A DNA stretch of 31,209 bases from the IMG/VR virus record IMGVR_UViG_3300029719_000311, positions 1 to 31,209 of that record; one strand, given 5' to 3'. Positions 1,369-16,487 of this stretch are shown piece by piece (position 1 is the first letter of the stretch; the number at the start of each line of letters is the position of its first letter). Source of the stretch: a virus (lineage: Duplodnaviria > Heunggongvirae > Uroviricota > Caudoviricetes). Below the pieces are notes generated by a model. That model made no database searches and had not been told where the DNA came from. It was given only the letters and a program-made list of their open reading frames with translations. The position numbers and the translations under genes were made by a program.

Positions 1369-1444
1369 GCCGATATAGCTCAGTTGGTAGAGCAGCGCAT
1401 TCGTAATGCGAAGGTCGTAGGTTCGACTCCTATTATCGGCACCA
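1369..1444 (+). tRNA. thrW: tRNA-Thr (anticodon CGT), thrW-like
   Basis: 76-nt sequence GCCGATATAGCTCAGTTGGTAGAGCAGCGCATTCGTAATGCG...GGTTCGACTCCTATTATCGGCACCA with cloverleaf features: acceptor stem GCCGATA/TATCGGC, anticodon loop TTCGTAA, T-loop GGTTCGA, 3' CCA. Confidence 0.95.
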
Positions 1445-1458: not shown

Positions 1459-2622
1459 TTACACATCATTAGTACCTTCCTTATTTTTTGACTGGGACAA
1501 ATTTGGGACCGATGGGTTCAGGATCGAGTCTATTTGCCGTGCGTGTTCGGTAAGGTGATTAGGTGCAAGGTGAGCATATCGACGAACCATTTCGATAGAC
1601 TCCCAGCCTCCCATTTCCTGTAACACTGACAACGGGACTCCGGCTTGAACCAGCCAACTTGCCCAGGTGTGTCTCAAGTCGTGAAATCTGAAATCATCAA
1701 TACCAGCCCGTCTCAGCGCCGCTTTCCAGGCTGTGTTTGCGTCATACCGCATCTTCCTTACTGTTGGCGCTTTCGTTCCGTCTGGTTTGGTACAGCTTTC
1801 CTTGTACACAAATACCCAACGGTGATGATTCCCGATTTGTTTTTTCAATACGCGACATGCAGTATCATTCAGCGCAACGCCAATTGCGCGGTTTGATTTA
1901 CTCTCTTCCGGGTTTATCCATGCCACCCGGCGCTGCATATCTATTTGTTGCCATTCAAGGTTGATGATGTTCGAGCGTCTTAAGCCTGTTGCCAGTGCAA
2001 ATTCAACAACAGACTTTAATGGCTCCGGACATTCATCAATCAGCCTTTGTGCTTCATGGGGCTCCAGCCAGCGGATCCGTTTATTCTTTGGTTGAGGCAC
2101 TTTAATAATTGGTGCCTTATCCAGCATTTTCCATTCACGCTCTGCGGCTCTTAGTAGGGCCTTTATAAATGAAAGATGCGTAGCCTTCGTTGCAACGGAC
2201 GCTGGTTTTGGCGTGTATTCTGGAACAGGTTTCCCTTTTTTTCTGCATGCTTCTGCCCTGAGTTTCCAGTTTTCCTCATGACGCCGGTTCGTCATTTTCT
2301 GCATTGCTGAATAAATTTTTGATTCAGTAATGTCTCTTAGTTGCATTCCTGCGAAATGTTGAAGCCAGAATCCGATCCGGCTTTTGTCATCGTCCAGTGA
2401 TTTTTTATGTGCTTTCTCTTCAAGCCACCTGACACACGCTTCCTCGAACGTTATATCAGGTATTTCACCAAGTTTGCTGACCCGCCATGCTTCAGCCTTT
2501 AGCTTGTCATGGAGTTCTGTCGCCTGCCTTTTGTCCTTTGTTCCAAGAGACTGTTTAAATCTTTTACCGTTCGGCAATGTGAAACTGGCGTACCATATTT
2601 CACCTCTGCGGAAGAGTGACAT
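1459..2622 (-). CDS. int: Tyrosine integrase, P22 Int-like (387 aa)
   Basis: Translation [46 protein letters not shown]... ending ...[39 protein letters not shown] with tyrosine-recombinase R..H..R..Y pattern; adjacent to tRNA att site; P22 Int is known to target thrW. Confidence 0.95.
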
Positions 2623-5434: not shown

Positions 5435-6109
5435 TTAGGCTTTGATTTTGTATCTTCTTGGTTTTCCTGAGAAAATCACTGTACCAATTATAGAGCAATT
5501 ACCGTTGATCTTAATGTAAGGCTCAGGCCAGTTTGGGTTTAACGCTTTGAGATAACGCTGTGTCCCATCTTCTATCAACCTTTTGAAGGTGGTTTCGCCT
5601 GTATCGTGCATCAATGCAATAACGTCGTCACCGTGGCAGGCAGGTACTTCAGGATCGACAAAAATCATGTCTCCCGGGCGGTACTCATCAATCATTGAAT
5701 CACCTATCACCCGCAAGATATAAGTCATTTCCCCACAGGGTACAGGGCAGGGATACGTTTCTGCTGTGCTCAAATCAACCTCAGAATATCCAACTTCTTT
5801 CCATGCTCCGGCCTGTACCCATGATATGACAGGGACTAATGTGATTTGTTTATTAGTGATTGAAACATCAGGTTTTTTTGTGATGTTCGTTGTCTGGTGT
5901 TCTTGATCGAGCCATCCGACAGGCAGGTCGAAACATTTTTCGATGTGTCGTGCCATGCTGTCACCGATATTTTTAGTAGCACCATCTCCCATAAACCTGC
6001 TGGTCTGGGTTGGCTCGCGATCAATCATAGTGGCAAAGGAAGAATTCCCGCCAACACCATCTCTCAGTTTTCTGGCGTTAGACCGCCGGATGTCATGGAT
6101 TGTTTTCAT
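5435..6109 (-). CDS. Phage repressor, cI/C2-like (N-terminal HTH, C-terminal S24 LexA-type peptidase domain)
   Basis: C-terminal ...VIGDSMIDEYRPGDMIFVDPE... (S24 GDSM serine motif) plus a downstream Lys; divergent from cro-like gene with palindromic operators between them. Confidence 0.85.
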   Translation of the reverse strand: MKTIHDIRRSNARKLRDGVGGNSSFATMIDREPTQTSRFMGDGATKNIGDSMARHIEKCFDLPVGWLDQEHQTTNITKKPDVSITNKQITLVPVISWVQAGAWKEVGYSEVDLSTAETYPCPVPCGEMTYILRVIGDSMIDEYRPGDMIFVDPEVPACHGDDVIALMHDTGETTFKRLIEDGTQRYLKALNPNWPEPYIKINGNCSIIGTVIFSGKPRRYKIKA

Positions 6110-6123
6110 AACGAAATTAAAAC

Positions 6124-6194
6124 CCTTGTACCGTTAAGGTACAAGTATCTTGAAGGTTCATTTCAATCATGTAATATGTACACCGGAGGTACAT
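6124..6194. promoter_or_regulatory. OR-like operator region between repressor and cro-like gene
   Basis: 21-bp palindrome CTTGTACC-GTTAA-GGTACAAG (6124..6144) and second dyad ATGTAC-N8-GTACAT (6175..6194) overlapping the cro RBS; related GGTACATT sites downstream of cI at 5364..5395. Confidence 0.45.
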
Positions 6195-6199
6195 ATTGT

Positions 6200-6400
6200 A
6201 TGAAAGCGTATTGGGACTCTTTAACCAAAGAACAGCAGGGCGAGTTGGCCGGAAAAGTTGGCTCAACACCTGGCTACTTACGGCTGGTTTTCAATGGCTA
6301 TAAAAAAGCCAGTTTTGTGCTGGCTAAAAAACTTGAGCAATGCACGTCAGGTGCAATTACGAAATCTGACTTAAGACCGGATATCTATCCGAAAGATTAG
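6200..6400 (+). CDS. Cro-like HTH regulator (66 aa)
   Basis: ATG preceded by GGAGG; MKAYWDSLTKEQQGELAGKVGSTPGYLRLVFNG... HTH-like; divergent from repressor. Confidence 0.7.
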   Translation: MKAYWDSLTKEQQGELAGKVGSTPGYLRLVFNGYKKASFVLAKKLEQCTSGAITKSDLRPDIYPKD

Positions 6401-6431
6401 CAGAACACTTTCAATTTTTAACCACAGAACG

Positions 6432-6995
6432 ATGAGGCTAACCGTGGGTAAGCATCACTGGAAAATAGAAAAACAGCCTGAGTGGTACGTGAAAGCTGTC
6501 AGAAAAACTATCGCGGCGTTGCCGGGTGGTTACGCTGAAGCGGCTGACTGGCTCGATGTAACAGAAAACGCTTTATTCAACCGCCTTCGTGCAGATGGCG
6601 ATCAGATTTTCCCGCTGGGATGGGCAATGGTTTTACAGCGTGCTGGTGGCACTCACTTCATTGCTGATGCTGTGGCGCAGTCTGCAAATGGCGTCTTTGT
6701 GTCTCTTCCTGACGTCGAGGATGTGGACAACGCCGATATCAACCAACGCCTGCTGGAAGTCATTGAACAGATCGGCAGTTATTCAAAACAGATTCGTTCA
6801 GCAATTGAAGACGGTGTAGTGGAACCGCATGAGAAGACAGCAATTAACGATGAGCTGTACCTCTCAATTTCGAAGCTGCAGGAGCATGCAGCACTGGTCT
6901 ACAAAATCTTTTGCGTTTCAGAAAGTAGTGACGCCCGCGAGTGTGCAGCTCCGGGCGCCGTGGCGTGTCGTGACTGTGGAGAAACTAACGCATGA
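6432..6995 (+). CDS. Putative phage regulatory protein (CII/YdaT-like position), 187 aa
   Basis: ORF immediately downstream of cro-like gene; assignment by position only. Confidence 0.4.
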
Positions 6996-7330
6996 ACAGT
7001 TTAACAACACACTACCGTCGCTCGCAACTGATTGCGCTTCCTATACCGGGTGGAAAAGCGAAGGTGGAGTATTGCTATGCAGTAAATGTACCAGGTGACA
7101 GGGAAATTGTAACCCACAGCTTTGCAGAGTGGGCTGTGGGTGATTTCAACCGGCAGAAGGAGACAGTCCTTTGCGACAAGTTAACCGCTGGTTCAAAGAT
7201 CACTACGGAGTGCCCGTCAGAGTCATTCGTTGGGAGCCGGAAACACAACGGGTTATCTACCTCCGTGAAGGCTATGAGCATGAGTGCTTCAGCCCGCTCG
7301 AACAGTTTCGTTGTAAATTCAGGGAAATAG
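6992..7330 (+). CDS. Hypothetical protein, possibly frameshifted (112 aa as called)
   Basis: ATG overlaps upstream stop (ATGA) with GGAGA RBS; N-terminal half protein-like, C-terminal half low-complexity; an alternative frame 7171..7350 reads as a compact protein (see findings). Confidence 0.3.
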
Positions 7331-7339
7331 AGGTCGGTC

Positions 7340-8281
7340 ATGAGCACTAAATTAACCGGCTATGTATGGGATGGTTGCGCTGCGTCAGGCATGAAATTAT
7401 CCAGCGTGGCAATTATGGCCCGCCTGGCTGATTTCAGTAATGACGAAGGTGTGTGCTGGCCATCAATTGAAACCATTGCCCGTCAGATTGGCGCGGGGAT
7501 GAGTACCGTCAGAACGGCTATCGCACGGCTGGAAGCAGAAGGCTGGTTAACGCGTAAGGCGCGTCGCCAGGGTAACCGCAATGCGTCGAATGTTTATCAG
7601 CTTAACGTTGCGAAGCTTCAGGCAGCGGCATTTTCTCAACTGTCAGATTCTGACCCGTCAAAATCTGACGCATCAAAATCTGACCCGTCAAAATTTGATG
7701 CGTCGAAATCTGGCAAAAAAGCGGGTTTTCACCCGTCAGAATCTGGCGGGGATCCGTCAGTAAAATCAAAACATGATCCGTCAGATAAAAAAACTTCTCG
7801 TCCGGACGCTTCGCAACCGGACACGCAGACGGCTGAACAGGAGTTTTTAACTCGCCATCCTGATGCGGTTGTATTCAGCCCTAAAAAGCGCCAGTGGGGA
7901 ACGCAGGATGATTTGACCTGCGCACAGTGGCTCTGGAAAAAAATCATCGCCCTGTACGAGCAGGCCGCCGAATGTGACGGCGAGGTGGTTCGTCCCAAAG
8001 AACCGAACTGGACAGCCTGGGCAAACGAAATTCGCCTGATGTGTGTGCAGGATGGTCGTACTCATAAACAAATCTGCGAGATGTACAGCCGCGTCAGTCG
8101 CGATCCGTTCTGGTGCCGTAACGTGCTCAGCCCGTCGAAGCTGCGGGAAAAATGGGATGAGCTTTCCCTGCGCTTATCGCCGTCCGTCAGCACGTACACC
8201 GAAAAACGCGAAGACCCGTACTTCAAAGCCAGTTACGACAACGTGGACTACAGCCAGATCCCGGCAGGATTCAGGGGGTGA
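7340..8281 (+). CDS. Replication initiation protein (lambda O-like role) with origin iterons inside the gene
   Basis: N-terminal winged-helix-like region; central DPSKSDASKSDPSKFDASKS repeats encoded by tandem 15-bp DNA repeats; position after cro/cII-like genes. Confidence 0.7.
   Translation: MSTKLTGYVWDGCAASGMKLSSVAIMARLADFSNDEGVCWPSIETIARQIGAGMSTVRTAIARLEAEGWLTRKARRQGNRNASNVYQLNVAKLQAAAFSQLSDSDPSKSDASKSDPSKFDASKSGKKAGFHPSESGGDPSVKSKHDPSDKKTSRPDASQPDTQTAEQEFLTRHPDAVVFSPKKRQWGTQDDLTCAQWLWKKIIALYEQAAECDGEVVRPKEPNWTAWANEIRLMCVQDGRTHKQICEMYSRVSRDPFWCRNVLSPSKLREKWDELSLRLSPSVSTYTEKREDPYFKASYDNVDYSQIPAGFRG
7640..7793. repeat. Candidate replication origin iterons (5 tandem 15-bp repeats plus 3 spaced copies) with adjacent A-rich tract
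   Basis: Repeats of CCGTCA(A/G)AATCTGA at 15-bp period 7640..7713, further copies at 7731, 7752 and 7777; within the replication initiator gene. Confidence 0.55.
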
Positions 8282-8772
8282 GCATGAGTCTTTTGAATGA
8301 CGTTCAGAAATTCATTGAAGCCCATCCGGGCTGTACTTCCGGAGATATTGCGGATGCTTTTGCCGGTTACTCACGGCAGCGCGTTCTGCAGTCAGCAAGC
8401 AAGTTACGTCAGAGTGGGCGTGTGGCTCACCGTTGTGAAGGAGATACACGCAGACATTTCCCGCGCCTGACTGAGAGAGCGCAGGAACCGGAACCACAAC
8501 CAGTTCGTGAAACCAGACCTGTGCGCAATTTCTATGTCGGCACTAACGATCCCCGTGTGATTTTGTGCCTGACCCGCCAGGCGGAAGAACTGGAGTCCAG
8601 GGGCTTATACCGTCGTGCTGCAACCGTGTGGATGGCGGCATTCCGTGAAAGCCACTCCCAGCCAGAACGAAACAATTTTCTGGCGCGTCGTGAGCGGTGC
8701 TTACGGAAAAGCAGCAAGCGCGCTGCATCGGGTGAAGAGTGGTATCTGTCAGGGAATTACGTGGGGGCTTAA
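8278..8772 (+). CDS. Hypothetical regulator (winged-helix N-terminus; PerC-like C-terminal region), 164 aa
   Basis: ATGA overlap with upstream gene; C-terminal ...EELESRGLYRRAATVWMAAF... resembles PerC-type prophage regulators from memory; low certainty. Confidence 0.4.
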   Translation: MSMSLLNDVQKFIEAHPGCTSGDIADAFAGYSRQRVLQSASKLRQSGRVAHRCEGDTRRHFPRLTERAQEPEPQPVRETRPVRNFYVGTNDPRVILCLTRQAEELESRGLYRRAATVWMAAFRESHSQPERNNFLARRERCLRKSSKRAASGEEWYLSGNYVGA

Positions 8773-9425
8773 TGAGTAATAAATATTGCCAGGCGCTGGT
8801 GGAACTGCGGAACAAACCAGCCCATGAACTGAAGGAAGTGGGCGATCAGTGGCGCACGCCGGACAACATTTTCTGGGGAATTAACACCCTGTTTGGCCCG
8901 TTTGTTCTGGATCTGTTCACTGACGGTGATAACGCCAAATGTGCCGCGTATTACACGGCGGAAGACAACGCGCTGGCGCATTACTGGTCAGAACGTCTTG
9001 CGGAGCTTAAAGGTGCTGCCTTTGGTAATCCCCCGTACAGCCGCGCCAGTCAGCATGAGGGGCAATACATCACCGGCATGCGTTACATCATGAAACATGC
9101 CAGTGCCATGCGTGATAAGGGCGGGCGCTATGTTTTCCTGATCAAAGCTGCCACCAGCGAAGTGTGGTGGCCGGAAGATGCAGATCATATTGCTTTTATT
9201 CGCGGGCGTATTGGTTTTGAACTGCCTGTCTGGTTTATCCCGAAAGACGAGAAGCAGGTACCGACAGGAGCTTTTTTCGCTGGTGCTATTGCTGTTTTTG
9301 ACAAGACCTGGAAGGGACCGGCAATCAGCTACATCGGGCGCGATGAACTTGAGGCATGTGGTGAGGCGTTTCTGGCGCAGGTTCGCCAGCAGGCGGAAAA
9401 ACTGGTCAGGGAGATGGCGGCATGA
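8772..9425 (+). CDS. Phage DNA N6-adenine methyltransferase (Dam-like)
   Basis: Catalytic motif NPPY in ...AAFGNPPYS...; start at ATG overlapping upstream stop (TAATG), giving MSNKYCQALVELRNK... Confidence 0.8.
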   Translation: MSNKYCQALVELRNKPAHELKEVGDQWRTPDNIFWGINTLFGPFVLDLFTDGDNAKCAAYYTAEDNALAHYWSERLAELKGAAFGNPPYSRASQHEGQYITGMRYIMKHASAMRDKGGRYVFLIKAATSEVWWPEDADHIAFIRGRIGFELPVWFIPKDEKQVPTGAFFAGAIAVFDKTWKGPAISYIGRDELEACGEAFLAQVRQQAEKLVREMAA

Positions 9426-9748
9426 CGACGTTAACTCAATGCCAGCAGCAGGTGCTGGATATGCTGATTTCTTATCAGAAAGAACGTGGCTTCCCGCCAA
9501 CCAATCAGGAGGTGGCAACCATGCTGGGATACCGTTCGGTGAATGCAGCGGTGGAGCATCTTCGCGCACTGGAGAAAAAAGGCGTCATCACGATAAAGCG
9601 TGGCGTGGCCCGGGGGATAACGCTTCATACCGCGGTGAAGGACGACGACAGCGAGGCGGTCGGGATTATCCGCGCACTGCTTGCCGGTGAGGAAAACGCA
9701 AGGCTGCGTGCAACCCACTGGTTACATGAGAGGGACCTGAAAGTATGA
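9422..9748 (+). CDS. LexA N-terminal DNA-binding-domain-like protein lacking the peptidase domain (108 aa)
   Basis: LTQCQQQVLDMLISYQKERGFPPTNQEVATMLGYRSVNAAVEHLRALEKKGVITIKRGVARGITL closely parallels the LexA N-terminal winged HTH; no S24 Ser/Lys region. Confidence 0.7.
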   Translation: MTTLTQCQQQVLDMLISYQKERGFPPTNQEVATMLGYRSVNAAVEHLRALEKKGVITIKRGVARGITLHTAVKDDDSEAVGIIRALLAGEENARLRATHWLHERDLKV

Positions 9749-15903: not shown

Positions 15904-16487
15904 TGGTATTCAGAATGAGTGAACAACCACGGACCATAACAATTTATAATCTGCTGGCCGGAACTAATGAATTTATTGGTGAAGGTGATGCATATATTCC
16001 GCCTCATACAGGTCTGCCAGCAAACAGTACCGATATTGCACCGCCAGATATTCCGGCAGGCTTCGTGGCTGTTTTCAACAGTGATGAGGCATCGTGGCAT
16101 CTCGTTGAAGATCATCGGGGTAAAACGGTTTATGACGTGGCTTCCGGCGACGCGTTATTTATTTCTGAACTCGGTCCGTTACCGGAAAATGTTACCTGGT
16201 TATCGCCGGGAGGGGAATATCAGAAGTGGAACGGCACAGCCTGGGTGAAGGATACGGAAGCAGAAAAACTGTTCCGGATCCGGGAGGCGGAAGAAACAAA
16301 AAACAGCCTGATGCAGGTAGCCAGTGAGCATATAGCGCCGCTTCAGGATGCTGTAGATCTGGAGATCGCAACGGAGGAAGAAAACTCGTTGCTGGAAGCC
16401 TGGAAAAAGTATCGGGTGTTGCTGAACCGTGTTGATACATCAACTGCACCGGATATTGAGTGGCCTGCTGTCCCTGTTATGGAGTAA
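15903..16487 (+). CDS. tfa: Tail fibre assembly protein Tfa
   Basis: TAATG overlap with stf; ...[68 protein letters not shown]... typical Tfa N-terminal region. Confidence 0.8.

Follow-up and report, generated by a model that had tools for sequence, protein, structure and literature searches.

Does the short stretch between ymfL and the replication initiator gene in this lambdoid prophage hold a single damaged gene, or two genes that overlap? The question concerns positions 6992-7350 of a DNA of 31,209 nucleotides (nt) from a virus of the Caudoviricetes (IMG/VR record IMGVR_UViG_3300029719_000311, positions 1-31,209; this whole stretch is called the window below). Two open reading frames (ORFs) on the plus strand, here named frame A and frame B, lie immediately upstream of and partly within the initiator gene, rep. 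A preliminary description, made from the letters of the sequence, had left the choice between a frameshift (pseudogene or sequencing error) and a nested small gene. As judged by comparison with related sequences, the locus is a pair of genuine conserved genes overlapping out of frame, i.e., ymfM in frame A and a gene of the DUF4222 family in frame B. The nested small gene is therefore the alternative that stands: frame B, a conserved member of the DUF4222 family, has a separate Shine-Dalgarno sequence and start codon, and RefSeq annotates it at 7171-7350. The parts of the locus referred to below are:

6432-6995, plus strand: ymfL, a cII-like regulator gene (Pfam Phage_CP76, E=1.4e-13), so named in RefSeq and in Escherichia coli K-12.
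6992-7330, plus strand: frame A, ymfM, 112 residues, with ATG at 6992 and TAG at 7328-7330; matches phrog_1170 (E=5e-70).
6992-7168, plus strand: conserved N-terminal domain of YmfM (N-domain), about 58 residues, with frame-specific selection, stand-alone homologues and an AlphaFold predicted local distance difference test score (pLDDT) of 70-85.
7169-7327, plus strand: Ser/Thr/Ala-rich tail of YmfM, overlapping the DUF4222 gene in the +1 frame from 7171.
7157-7163, plus strand: AAGGAGA, the Shine-Dalgarno sequence of the DUF4222 gene as read from the sequence, 7 nt 5' of the TTG.
7171-7350, plus strand: frame B, the DUF4222 gene, 59 residues, with TTG at 7171 and TAA at 7348-7350; Pfam PF13973, RefSeq WP_023148278.1.
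7328-7333, plus strand: TAGAGG, in which the frame A stop codon TAG merges with the purine-rich ribosome-binding region of rep; aligned position constant in 28 of 28 loci.
7340-8281, plus strand: rep, an O-like replication initiator gene with a helix-turn-helix (Pfam HTH_36 and DnaD_N-like matches), annotated as replication protein O.

Each frame has a separate start and ribosome-binding site. The ATG of frame A overlaps the TGA of ymfL (gcATGAac) and has GGAG upstream, which bears out the earlier remark that this start is well coupled. Frame B, which lies in the -1 frame relative to frame A, is preceded by AAGGAGA and a spacer of 7 nt before its TTG; the ORF coordinates, this start and Shine-Dalgarno sequence, and the 11-nt overlap with rep are all present in the sequence as first described. 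The out-of-frame overlap between the two frames spans 160 nt (7171-7330). Frame B is only partly embedded, extending 20 nt beyond the frame A stop and into rep, and its own stop falls 8 nt past the rep ATG. Frame A and rep are in a common reading frame, with 9 nt between the frame A TAG and the rep ATG at 7340. A scan of the plus strand for promoters and terminators between 6992 and 7350 found nothing relevant. On the minus strand, a 90-residue antisense ORF (7075-7347) is open opposite the ymfM/DUF4222 overlap; it probably results from the codon constraints acting on the plus strand.

Frame A is the ymfM gene (b1148) of the e14 prophage of E. coli K-12, with few differences over 339 aligned bases (mean column identity 99%; both products have 112 residues). 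The gene order ymfK-ymfT-ymfL-ymfM is common to the window and K-12, with rep downstream, and K-12 ymfM holds the same nested, TTG-started ORF of 59 residues. The family phrog_1170 matches frame A over residues 1-112 of 112 (E=5e-70), and a Pfam search assigned it no family; the ymfM family comprises 441 protein clusters, and most of the 120 best listed have 104-114 residues. Frame B, which had been called protein-like from its translation, scores 67.4 bits with Pfam DUF4222 (PF13973), for which the cut-off is 27 (E=8.2e-19), covering positions 3-52 of the 53 in the profile, and it matches phrog_1343 with E=1.5e-33. By these profile matches, its protein-like appearance is beyond chance. The annotation resources treat the locus in different ways. 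The RefSeq pipeline (Prokaryotic Genome Annotation Pipeline, PGAP) annotates DUF4222 alone, at exactly 7171-7350, and in the E. coli genomes listed it places nothing at 6996-7170; in K-12 and in several phage records it is ymfM alone that is annotated, DUF4222 being dropped; and PHROGs has a family for each frame and a further one covering just the N-terminal ~63 residues, making two for frame A.

Of 5,426 complete E. coli genomes, 2,647 carry the two-frame layout at 95-99.8% identity, K-12 MG1655 among them. When one genome per species was scanned for the pattern, 27 further loci with the same layout came to light, mostly in the genera Escherichia, Shigella, Atlantibacter, Citrobacter, Enterobacter, Kluyvera, Kosakonia, Buttiauxella, Silvania and Phytobacter; these 27 and the window form the set of 28 loci used below. 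A distribution of this kind does not fit a frameshift, pseudogene or sequencing error. In all 28 loci frame A begins with MNSLT-like residues adjoining the cII-like gene, the ATGA-coupled start being kept across genera, and it stays open across the whole of the DUF4222 gene to the same aligned stop, with B identities down to 69%. The start codon of frame B has a constant position in 28 of 28 (mostly ATG, in some cases GTG or TTG), and GGAG or GGAGG is found at the equivalent site 5' of frame B in all relatives. In 26 of the 28, the frame A stop lies 9 nt 5' of the downstream ATG, regardless of the length of B (59-86 residues). A scan of viral contigs with the DUF4222 alignment gave near-identical loci only, usable for polymorphism counts and not for diversity; both frames were intact in every one of these 85 viral or prophage loci, which comprise 51 haplotypes. 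The preliminary description had proposed that its reading would fall if homologues showed frame A continuing intact and frame B lacking conservation. Frame A is indeed intact throughout the homologues with this layout, but frame B, far from lacking conservation, is the better conserved of the two.

Two of the 27 loci, L010 and L017, come from records labelled Vagococcus sp. and Geobacteraceae metagenome-assembled genome, and an enterobacterial-type module also occurs in "Elizabethkingia phage EKP1"; contamination or mislabelling of these records is possible. In L125, a 1-nt deletion in B codon 3 shifts the B ATG into frame A.

Polymorphism was then compared frame by frame, as the ratio of non-synonymous to synonymous polymorphism (pN/pS). 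Upstream of B, pN/pS was 0.37-0.47 in frame A and about 1 in both remaining frames, and this was seen in each of three divergent types of N-domain; in the N-part of the e14 type, there were 17 synonymous and 9 non-synonymous polymorphisms. Within the overlap, pN/pS was 0.17 for frame B (24 haplotypes), with a synonymous polymorphism (pS) of 0.68, i.e., saturated synonymous change, and the value for frame A was 1.74, compared with 1.73 for the unused third frame. Of the 15 polymorphisms in the overlap, 13 were synonymous in B and changed A, and two were of the reverse kind.

The composition and predicted structures of the products follow the same division. As had been noticed earlier, frame A becomes low in complexity after about residue 58: Ser, Thr, Ala and Gly make up 45% of residues 60-112 (12 Ser among 53 residues) as against 27% of residues 1-59. 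The AlphaFold model of YmfM has three beta strands and a helix at residues ~10-66 with pLDDT 70-85, and residues 67-112 have a pLDDT of 33-36, so that the tail is predicted to be disordered. The DUF4222 protein is modelled confidently (pLDDT 82.5) as a small beta barrel, and its predicted fold is of the generic SH3/KOW/Tudor-like type; the best Foldseek match to this model had E 0.04 and a template-modelling (TM) score of ~0.65. With the YmfM model Foldseek gave no meaningful match, and a sequence search for relatives of solved structure found none. Because pN/pS in each frame, the individual polymorphisms and the AlphaFold models agree, we conclude that the B protein and the first ~58 residues of A are constrained, and that the sequence of the A tail is not.

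Is the reading frame of the tail, then, as free as its sequence? A stop arises in frame A wherever a B codon NTA or NTG precedes a codon starting with A, or NTA precedes G. Among 29 haplotypes, the third position of GTN and CTN codons of B was a purine in 0 of 93 cases where the next codon began with A, compared with 33 of 69 where it began with C or T. The cII-like and rep genes that flank the pair in these loci, taken in the same codon context, had a purine in 241 of 404 cases (60%). When changes were placed on a neighbour-joining tree, 15 safe four-fold sites averaged 3.9 purine-pyrimidine changes, with one site at zero, and the four danger sites (B codons 4, 18, 28 and 43) showed zero. At B codon 16, GTG and GTA occur solely in lineages whose next codon begins with C. 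Codon randomisation according to E. coli usage left frame A open in 2-8% of trials for most sequences, with a maximum of 16%. The frame A stop, TA(A/G), is fixed in position though the B residues there vary (I-E, L-K, I-T, I-K, I-R, I-G or I-V), and it requires the rare codons ATA, TTA or CTA in B. The reading frame of the tail does look constrained. Considered as a case of dual coding, the second frame is maintained beyond chance, with the truncated locus L124 and the open control genes described below as caveats; amino-acid constraint in the shared stretch was found for B, and not for both products.

We think it probable that two genuine genes overlap out of frame for 160 nt on one early-operon mRNA, and that selection keeps the ymfM frame open to a fixed stop near rep. 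Ribosomes leaving ymfL would enter ymfM through the ATGA overlap and make the folded N-domain of ~58 residues. The same ribosomes would read on through the DUF4222 gene in the +1 frame, adding a disordered tail of unselected sequence, and would terminate in the ribosome-binding region of rep (TAGAGG, 6 nt, ATG), where they would be well placed to promote initiation of rep. Other ribosomes would start at the internal Shine-Dalgarno sequence and TTG, yielding the 59-residue, SH3/KOW-like DUF4222 protein. We infer that both products are made, and that what selection preserves is ribosome transit, or else a fixed-length tail, up to the rep start. Translation of rep would thereby be coupled to that of ymfL-ymfM. 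The spacing of the genes is that of a translationally coupled operon, with the ATGA at ymfL/ymfM and the ymfM stop 9 nt from the rep ATG in the 26 loci mentioned above.

Several observations weigh against this proposal. The tail changes as freely as the unused frame (pN/pS 1.74 and 1.73), and the coupling of rep to ymfL-ymfM is deduced from the spacing of the genes. A search of the literature gave no ribosome-profiling paper in which ymfM is mentioned. The Fisher probabilities for the purine counts (2e-15 for 0/93 versus 33/69, and 8e-32 versus 241/404) ignore phylogeny and are overstated, the sequences being related and recombining; an empirical estimate per site is ~3e-4 to 2e-3. Permutation of codons within each gene gave no significant result for the openness of frame A (P 0.08-0.94), although this test has little power, since dangerous codons are already scarce in the pool of codons that it permutes. 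Among DUF4222 genes without ymfM read-through, three of six still have an open +1 frame, so that some of the openness may be inherited or due to composition. Finally, in L124, a metagenome scaffold (1201-1395), frame A is cut at codon 64 and DUF4222 is intact; the truncating change is non-synonymous in B (Arg/Lys9 to Ile; TTC ATA GAT).

Most of these points would be expected if the overlap were accidental, that is, if the N-domain (~58 residues) and the DUF4222 protein were what matters and the openness of frame A were historical or compositional. To the pN/pS of the tail, L124, the three open control genes and the permutation result may be added, in favour of this view, the predicted disorder of the tail and the occurrence of the N-domain elsewhere as a stand-alone gene of 53-69 residues. 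We nevertheless consider an accidental overlap unlikely. It would leave unexplained why frame A runs open to one shared stop in 28 of 28 loci when synonymous change in B is saturated (pS 0.68), why the four danger sites have zero changes against a mean of 3.9 at safe sites, with GTG/GTA at codon 16 in a safe context alone, and why purines are found at 0 of 93 positions compared with 60% in the flanking genes; in addition, the TA(A/G) stop has been kept while the surrounding B amino acids changed. The view implicit in RefSeq, that frame B is the sole real gene, ymfM a spurious ORF and 6992-7170 an untranslated spacer or leader, appears very unlikely. It agrees with the PGAP annotation, in which DUF4222 is called and 6996-7170 left empty in the E. 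coli genomes listed, and with the lack of a Pfam family for frame A, but it is at odds with frame-specific purifying selection on 6992-7168, with an ATGA-coupled start conserved across genera, with a 441-cluster family that has stand-alone members in distant phages, with the moderately confident fold of the N-domain and with the two PHROG families for frame A. As for a frameshift mutation or sequencing error, specific to the window, that split one ancestral gene into a pseudogene, the superficial two-frame appearance is all that favours it; the same layout is found in 2,647/5,426 E. coli genomes, in K-12 MG1655, in 85 unbroken viral or prophage loci and in several enterobacterial genera, and we give this possibility practically no credence.

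It was also necessary to consider programmed -1 ribosomal frameshifting, which would yield a fusion of ~118 residues between the YmfM N-domain and DUF4222. Both frames are jointly open from 7144 to 7330, and the protein databases, when queried with the concatenated sequence A(1-59)+B as the preliminary description had recommended, contain a few in-frame fusions (P0001-P0005 and P0038). However, the search disclosed no conserved fusion. Each fusion has a different junction, as with indel errors (the causes are deletions, single-base indels or an extra G), most are from single contigs or assemblies, and they look like indel artefacts. No slippery heptamer of the form X XXY YYZ was found in 7144-7170, the sole stretch upstream of the B start in which both frames are open, and there was no motif common to the three junction types. 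The RNA fold of 7120-7230 was no more stable than that of shuffled sequences (z -0.67); a hairpin of 6 bp that covers the Shine-Dalgarno sequence and the TTG was not seen in the other junction types. In L031 and L018 a stop codon in the B frame lies 0-1 codons 5' of the B ATG, and a fusion therefore cannot form there, nor can any upstream ribosome shift into B. With no slippery site, no conserved fusion, differing junctions and modules that can be separated (see below), we rejected programmed frameshifting, which we regard as highly improbable. One of the fusions, P0002, arises from an extra G in a run of five. In some e14-type lineages, T7141G (~7137-7143) removes the stop upstream of B in the B frame and creates a G5 run (proteins P0002 and P0006), and the extra G in this run gives the in-frame N-domain-DUF4222 fusion P0002, with 14 member sequences from read-archive assemblies; P0002 may be a true variant or may reflect a homopolymer error.

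The separability of the two modules is evident in other phages. Stand-alone N-domain genes of 53-69 residues occur in phages of Yersinia, Providencia and Citrobacter, and in others: in Yersinia phage YeP1 the homologue is a 53-residue gene whose stop lies 30 nt 5' of the DUF4222 gene, and in Providencia phage PSTCR8lys it is a 69-residue gene in another relative frame. The modules are separate genes in L116, L117, L120 and L122. In two of these, Citrobacter koseri (L120) and L122, the order is cII-like gene, N-domain (59-62 residues), Rha/ANT antirepressor, DUF4222 and rep, an antirepressor gene thus standing between the modules; together with the separate genes in varying frames of YeP1 and PSTCR8lys, this also speaks against a frameshifted fusion. 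In L121 and in phage phiNP, the N-domain and Rha occur without a DUF4222 gene. In SfV, ST64B and Stx phages, frame A lacks a stop before the rep position and continues into a Rha/Ash ORF. In the corresponding records (L112-L114: SfV, ST64B and a Stx2a phage; ~1352-2500), ORFs of 278-385 residues annotated as "transcriptional regulator/antirepressor" start at the YmfM-like ATG and cross an unannotated DUF4222 gene in another frame, with a Rha-like part that apparently begins only at ~residue 210 (judged by eye from the translations); these antirepressor ORFs may be over-extended.

If two proteins are made from the locus, which of them inhibits cell division? In K-12, ymfM is annotated as "cell division inhibitor YmfM", and it has been reported to be the SOS-inducible inhibitor SfiC (Ansari et al., bioRxiv 10.1101/2020.11.19.390815). 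The YmfM/SfiC product is reported to inhibit formation of the FtsZ ring and to cause filamentation, in tests on the complete ORF or on a deletion: Ansari et al. placed the ymfM ORF in pBAD24 and worked with a ymfM deletion, and earlier SfiC screens had recovered fragments spanning ymfL' to ymfN'. All of these constructs and deletions carry or remove the Shine-Dalgarno sequence and TTG of the DUF4222 gene and at least its codons 1-53, i.e., the whole Pfam domain; the pBAD24-ymfM insert includes the Shine-Dalgarno sequence, the TTG and codons 1-53. Because the whole ORF was cloned or deleted, the published SfiC experiments cannot separate the two products. A search of the literature found no mention of the nested ORF, of a frame-specific mutant or tag, or of ribosome profiling of ymfM. 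YmfM is still favoured as the division inhibitor, because in the pBAD plasmid frame A uses the strong start of the vector and B relies on its TTG. That SfiC filamentation is due wholly or partly to the DUF4222 protein in the other frame seems to us a tentative idea, on the doubtful side, and we place with it the related reading that the YmfM tail would be a "sequence-free" stretch kept open only to carry ribosomes over the DUF4222 gene to the rep start. The K-12 locus, otherwise so similar to that of the window (112 residues, the same neighbours, near-identical DNA and the nested 59-residue ORF), differs in that its rep is truncated and fused (ymfN), whereas rep of the window is intact, and in that a single gene is assumed there, both in the K-12 annotation and in the SfiC papers.

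The papers that mention the DUF4222 family do no more than list it. In the loci examined, its gene lies directly 5' of a replication initiator, with or without ymfM read-through. The gene of the window resembles its relatives in this position and in overlapping the start of rep; as points of difference, it uses TTG rather than ATG and is read through by ymfM in another frame.

Two phage systems invite comparison with this arrangement. In lambda, Rz and Rz1 are an out-of-frame overlapping pair of which both products are functional in the shared stretch. As there, the window has a small gene with its own start in the other frame on the same strand, and a layout conserved in related phages. It differs in that amino-acid constraint in the overlap is seen for B only, with A showing maintenance of an open frame only, in that B is not fully embedded, and in that the modules also exist unlinked. 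The arrangement is a well-supported example of the out-of-frame overlapping gene pairs of phages, although, as far as its sequences indicate, it lacks the dual amino-acid constraint of true dual coding. In phage P1, icd, a small division-inhibitor ORF, overlaps and is translationally coupled to the antirepressor gene ant. The likeness lies in a division-linked small ORF just upstream of, and overlapping, the next regulatory gene; moreover, an N-domain gene lies directly 5' of a Rha/ANT antirepressor in C. koseri, L121 and L122, and frame A enters such a gene in SfV-type phages. Homology of the N-domain to P1 Icd was considered and rejected: a tblastn search with the YmfM N-domain against 50,697 phage records gave no match to P1, and the likeness is an analogy of layout only.

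The locus is part of a larger module, whose order was read in the window:

5435-9425: immunity and replication module of an e14/SfII-like lambdoid prophage.
5435-6109, minus strand: ymfK, a LexA/cI-type repressor gene; a cro-like gene comes next.

On the 3' side of rep are a PerC-like gene and then a Dam methylase gene. Inside the rep ORF, at 7643-7717 (and 7721-7750), are five or six tandem iteron-like repeats of 15 nt (TCAAAATCTGACNCG), which are probably the replication origin; in lambda, ori is situated within gene O. An ORF of 108 residues at 9422-9748 (plus strand) has a translation resembling the N-terminal DNA-binding domain of LexA without the protease domain. Elsewhere in the window, a tRNA gene at 1369-1441 (plus strand; Rfam, 71.8 bits) adjoins a 387-residue ORF at 1459-2622 (minus strand), and the two may be the prophage attachment site and integrase. 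In the late region, 16246-16444 (plus strand) is a full-length match to Rfam IS009, with 222.7 bits against a gathering score of 117.

The significance of these results lies partly in the fact that ymfM is a named K-12 gene whose published function is said to have closed a 35-year search for sfiC. The ymfM locus encodes two conserved frames, and the more strongly conserved product is absent from the K-12 annotation; RefSeq on the one hand, and the K-12 and phage annotations on the other, each drop one of the two genes. The question of which protein is SfiC can be reduced to an experiment with two mutations. For the uncharacterised DUF4222 family, the position next to a phage replication initiator in all loci examined provides a first context. 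More generally, the locus is a candidate for a clean case in which an overlapping frame is seemingly selected for its openness and not for its amino-acid sequence.

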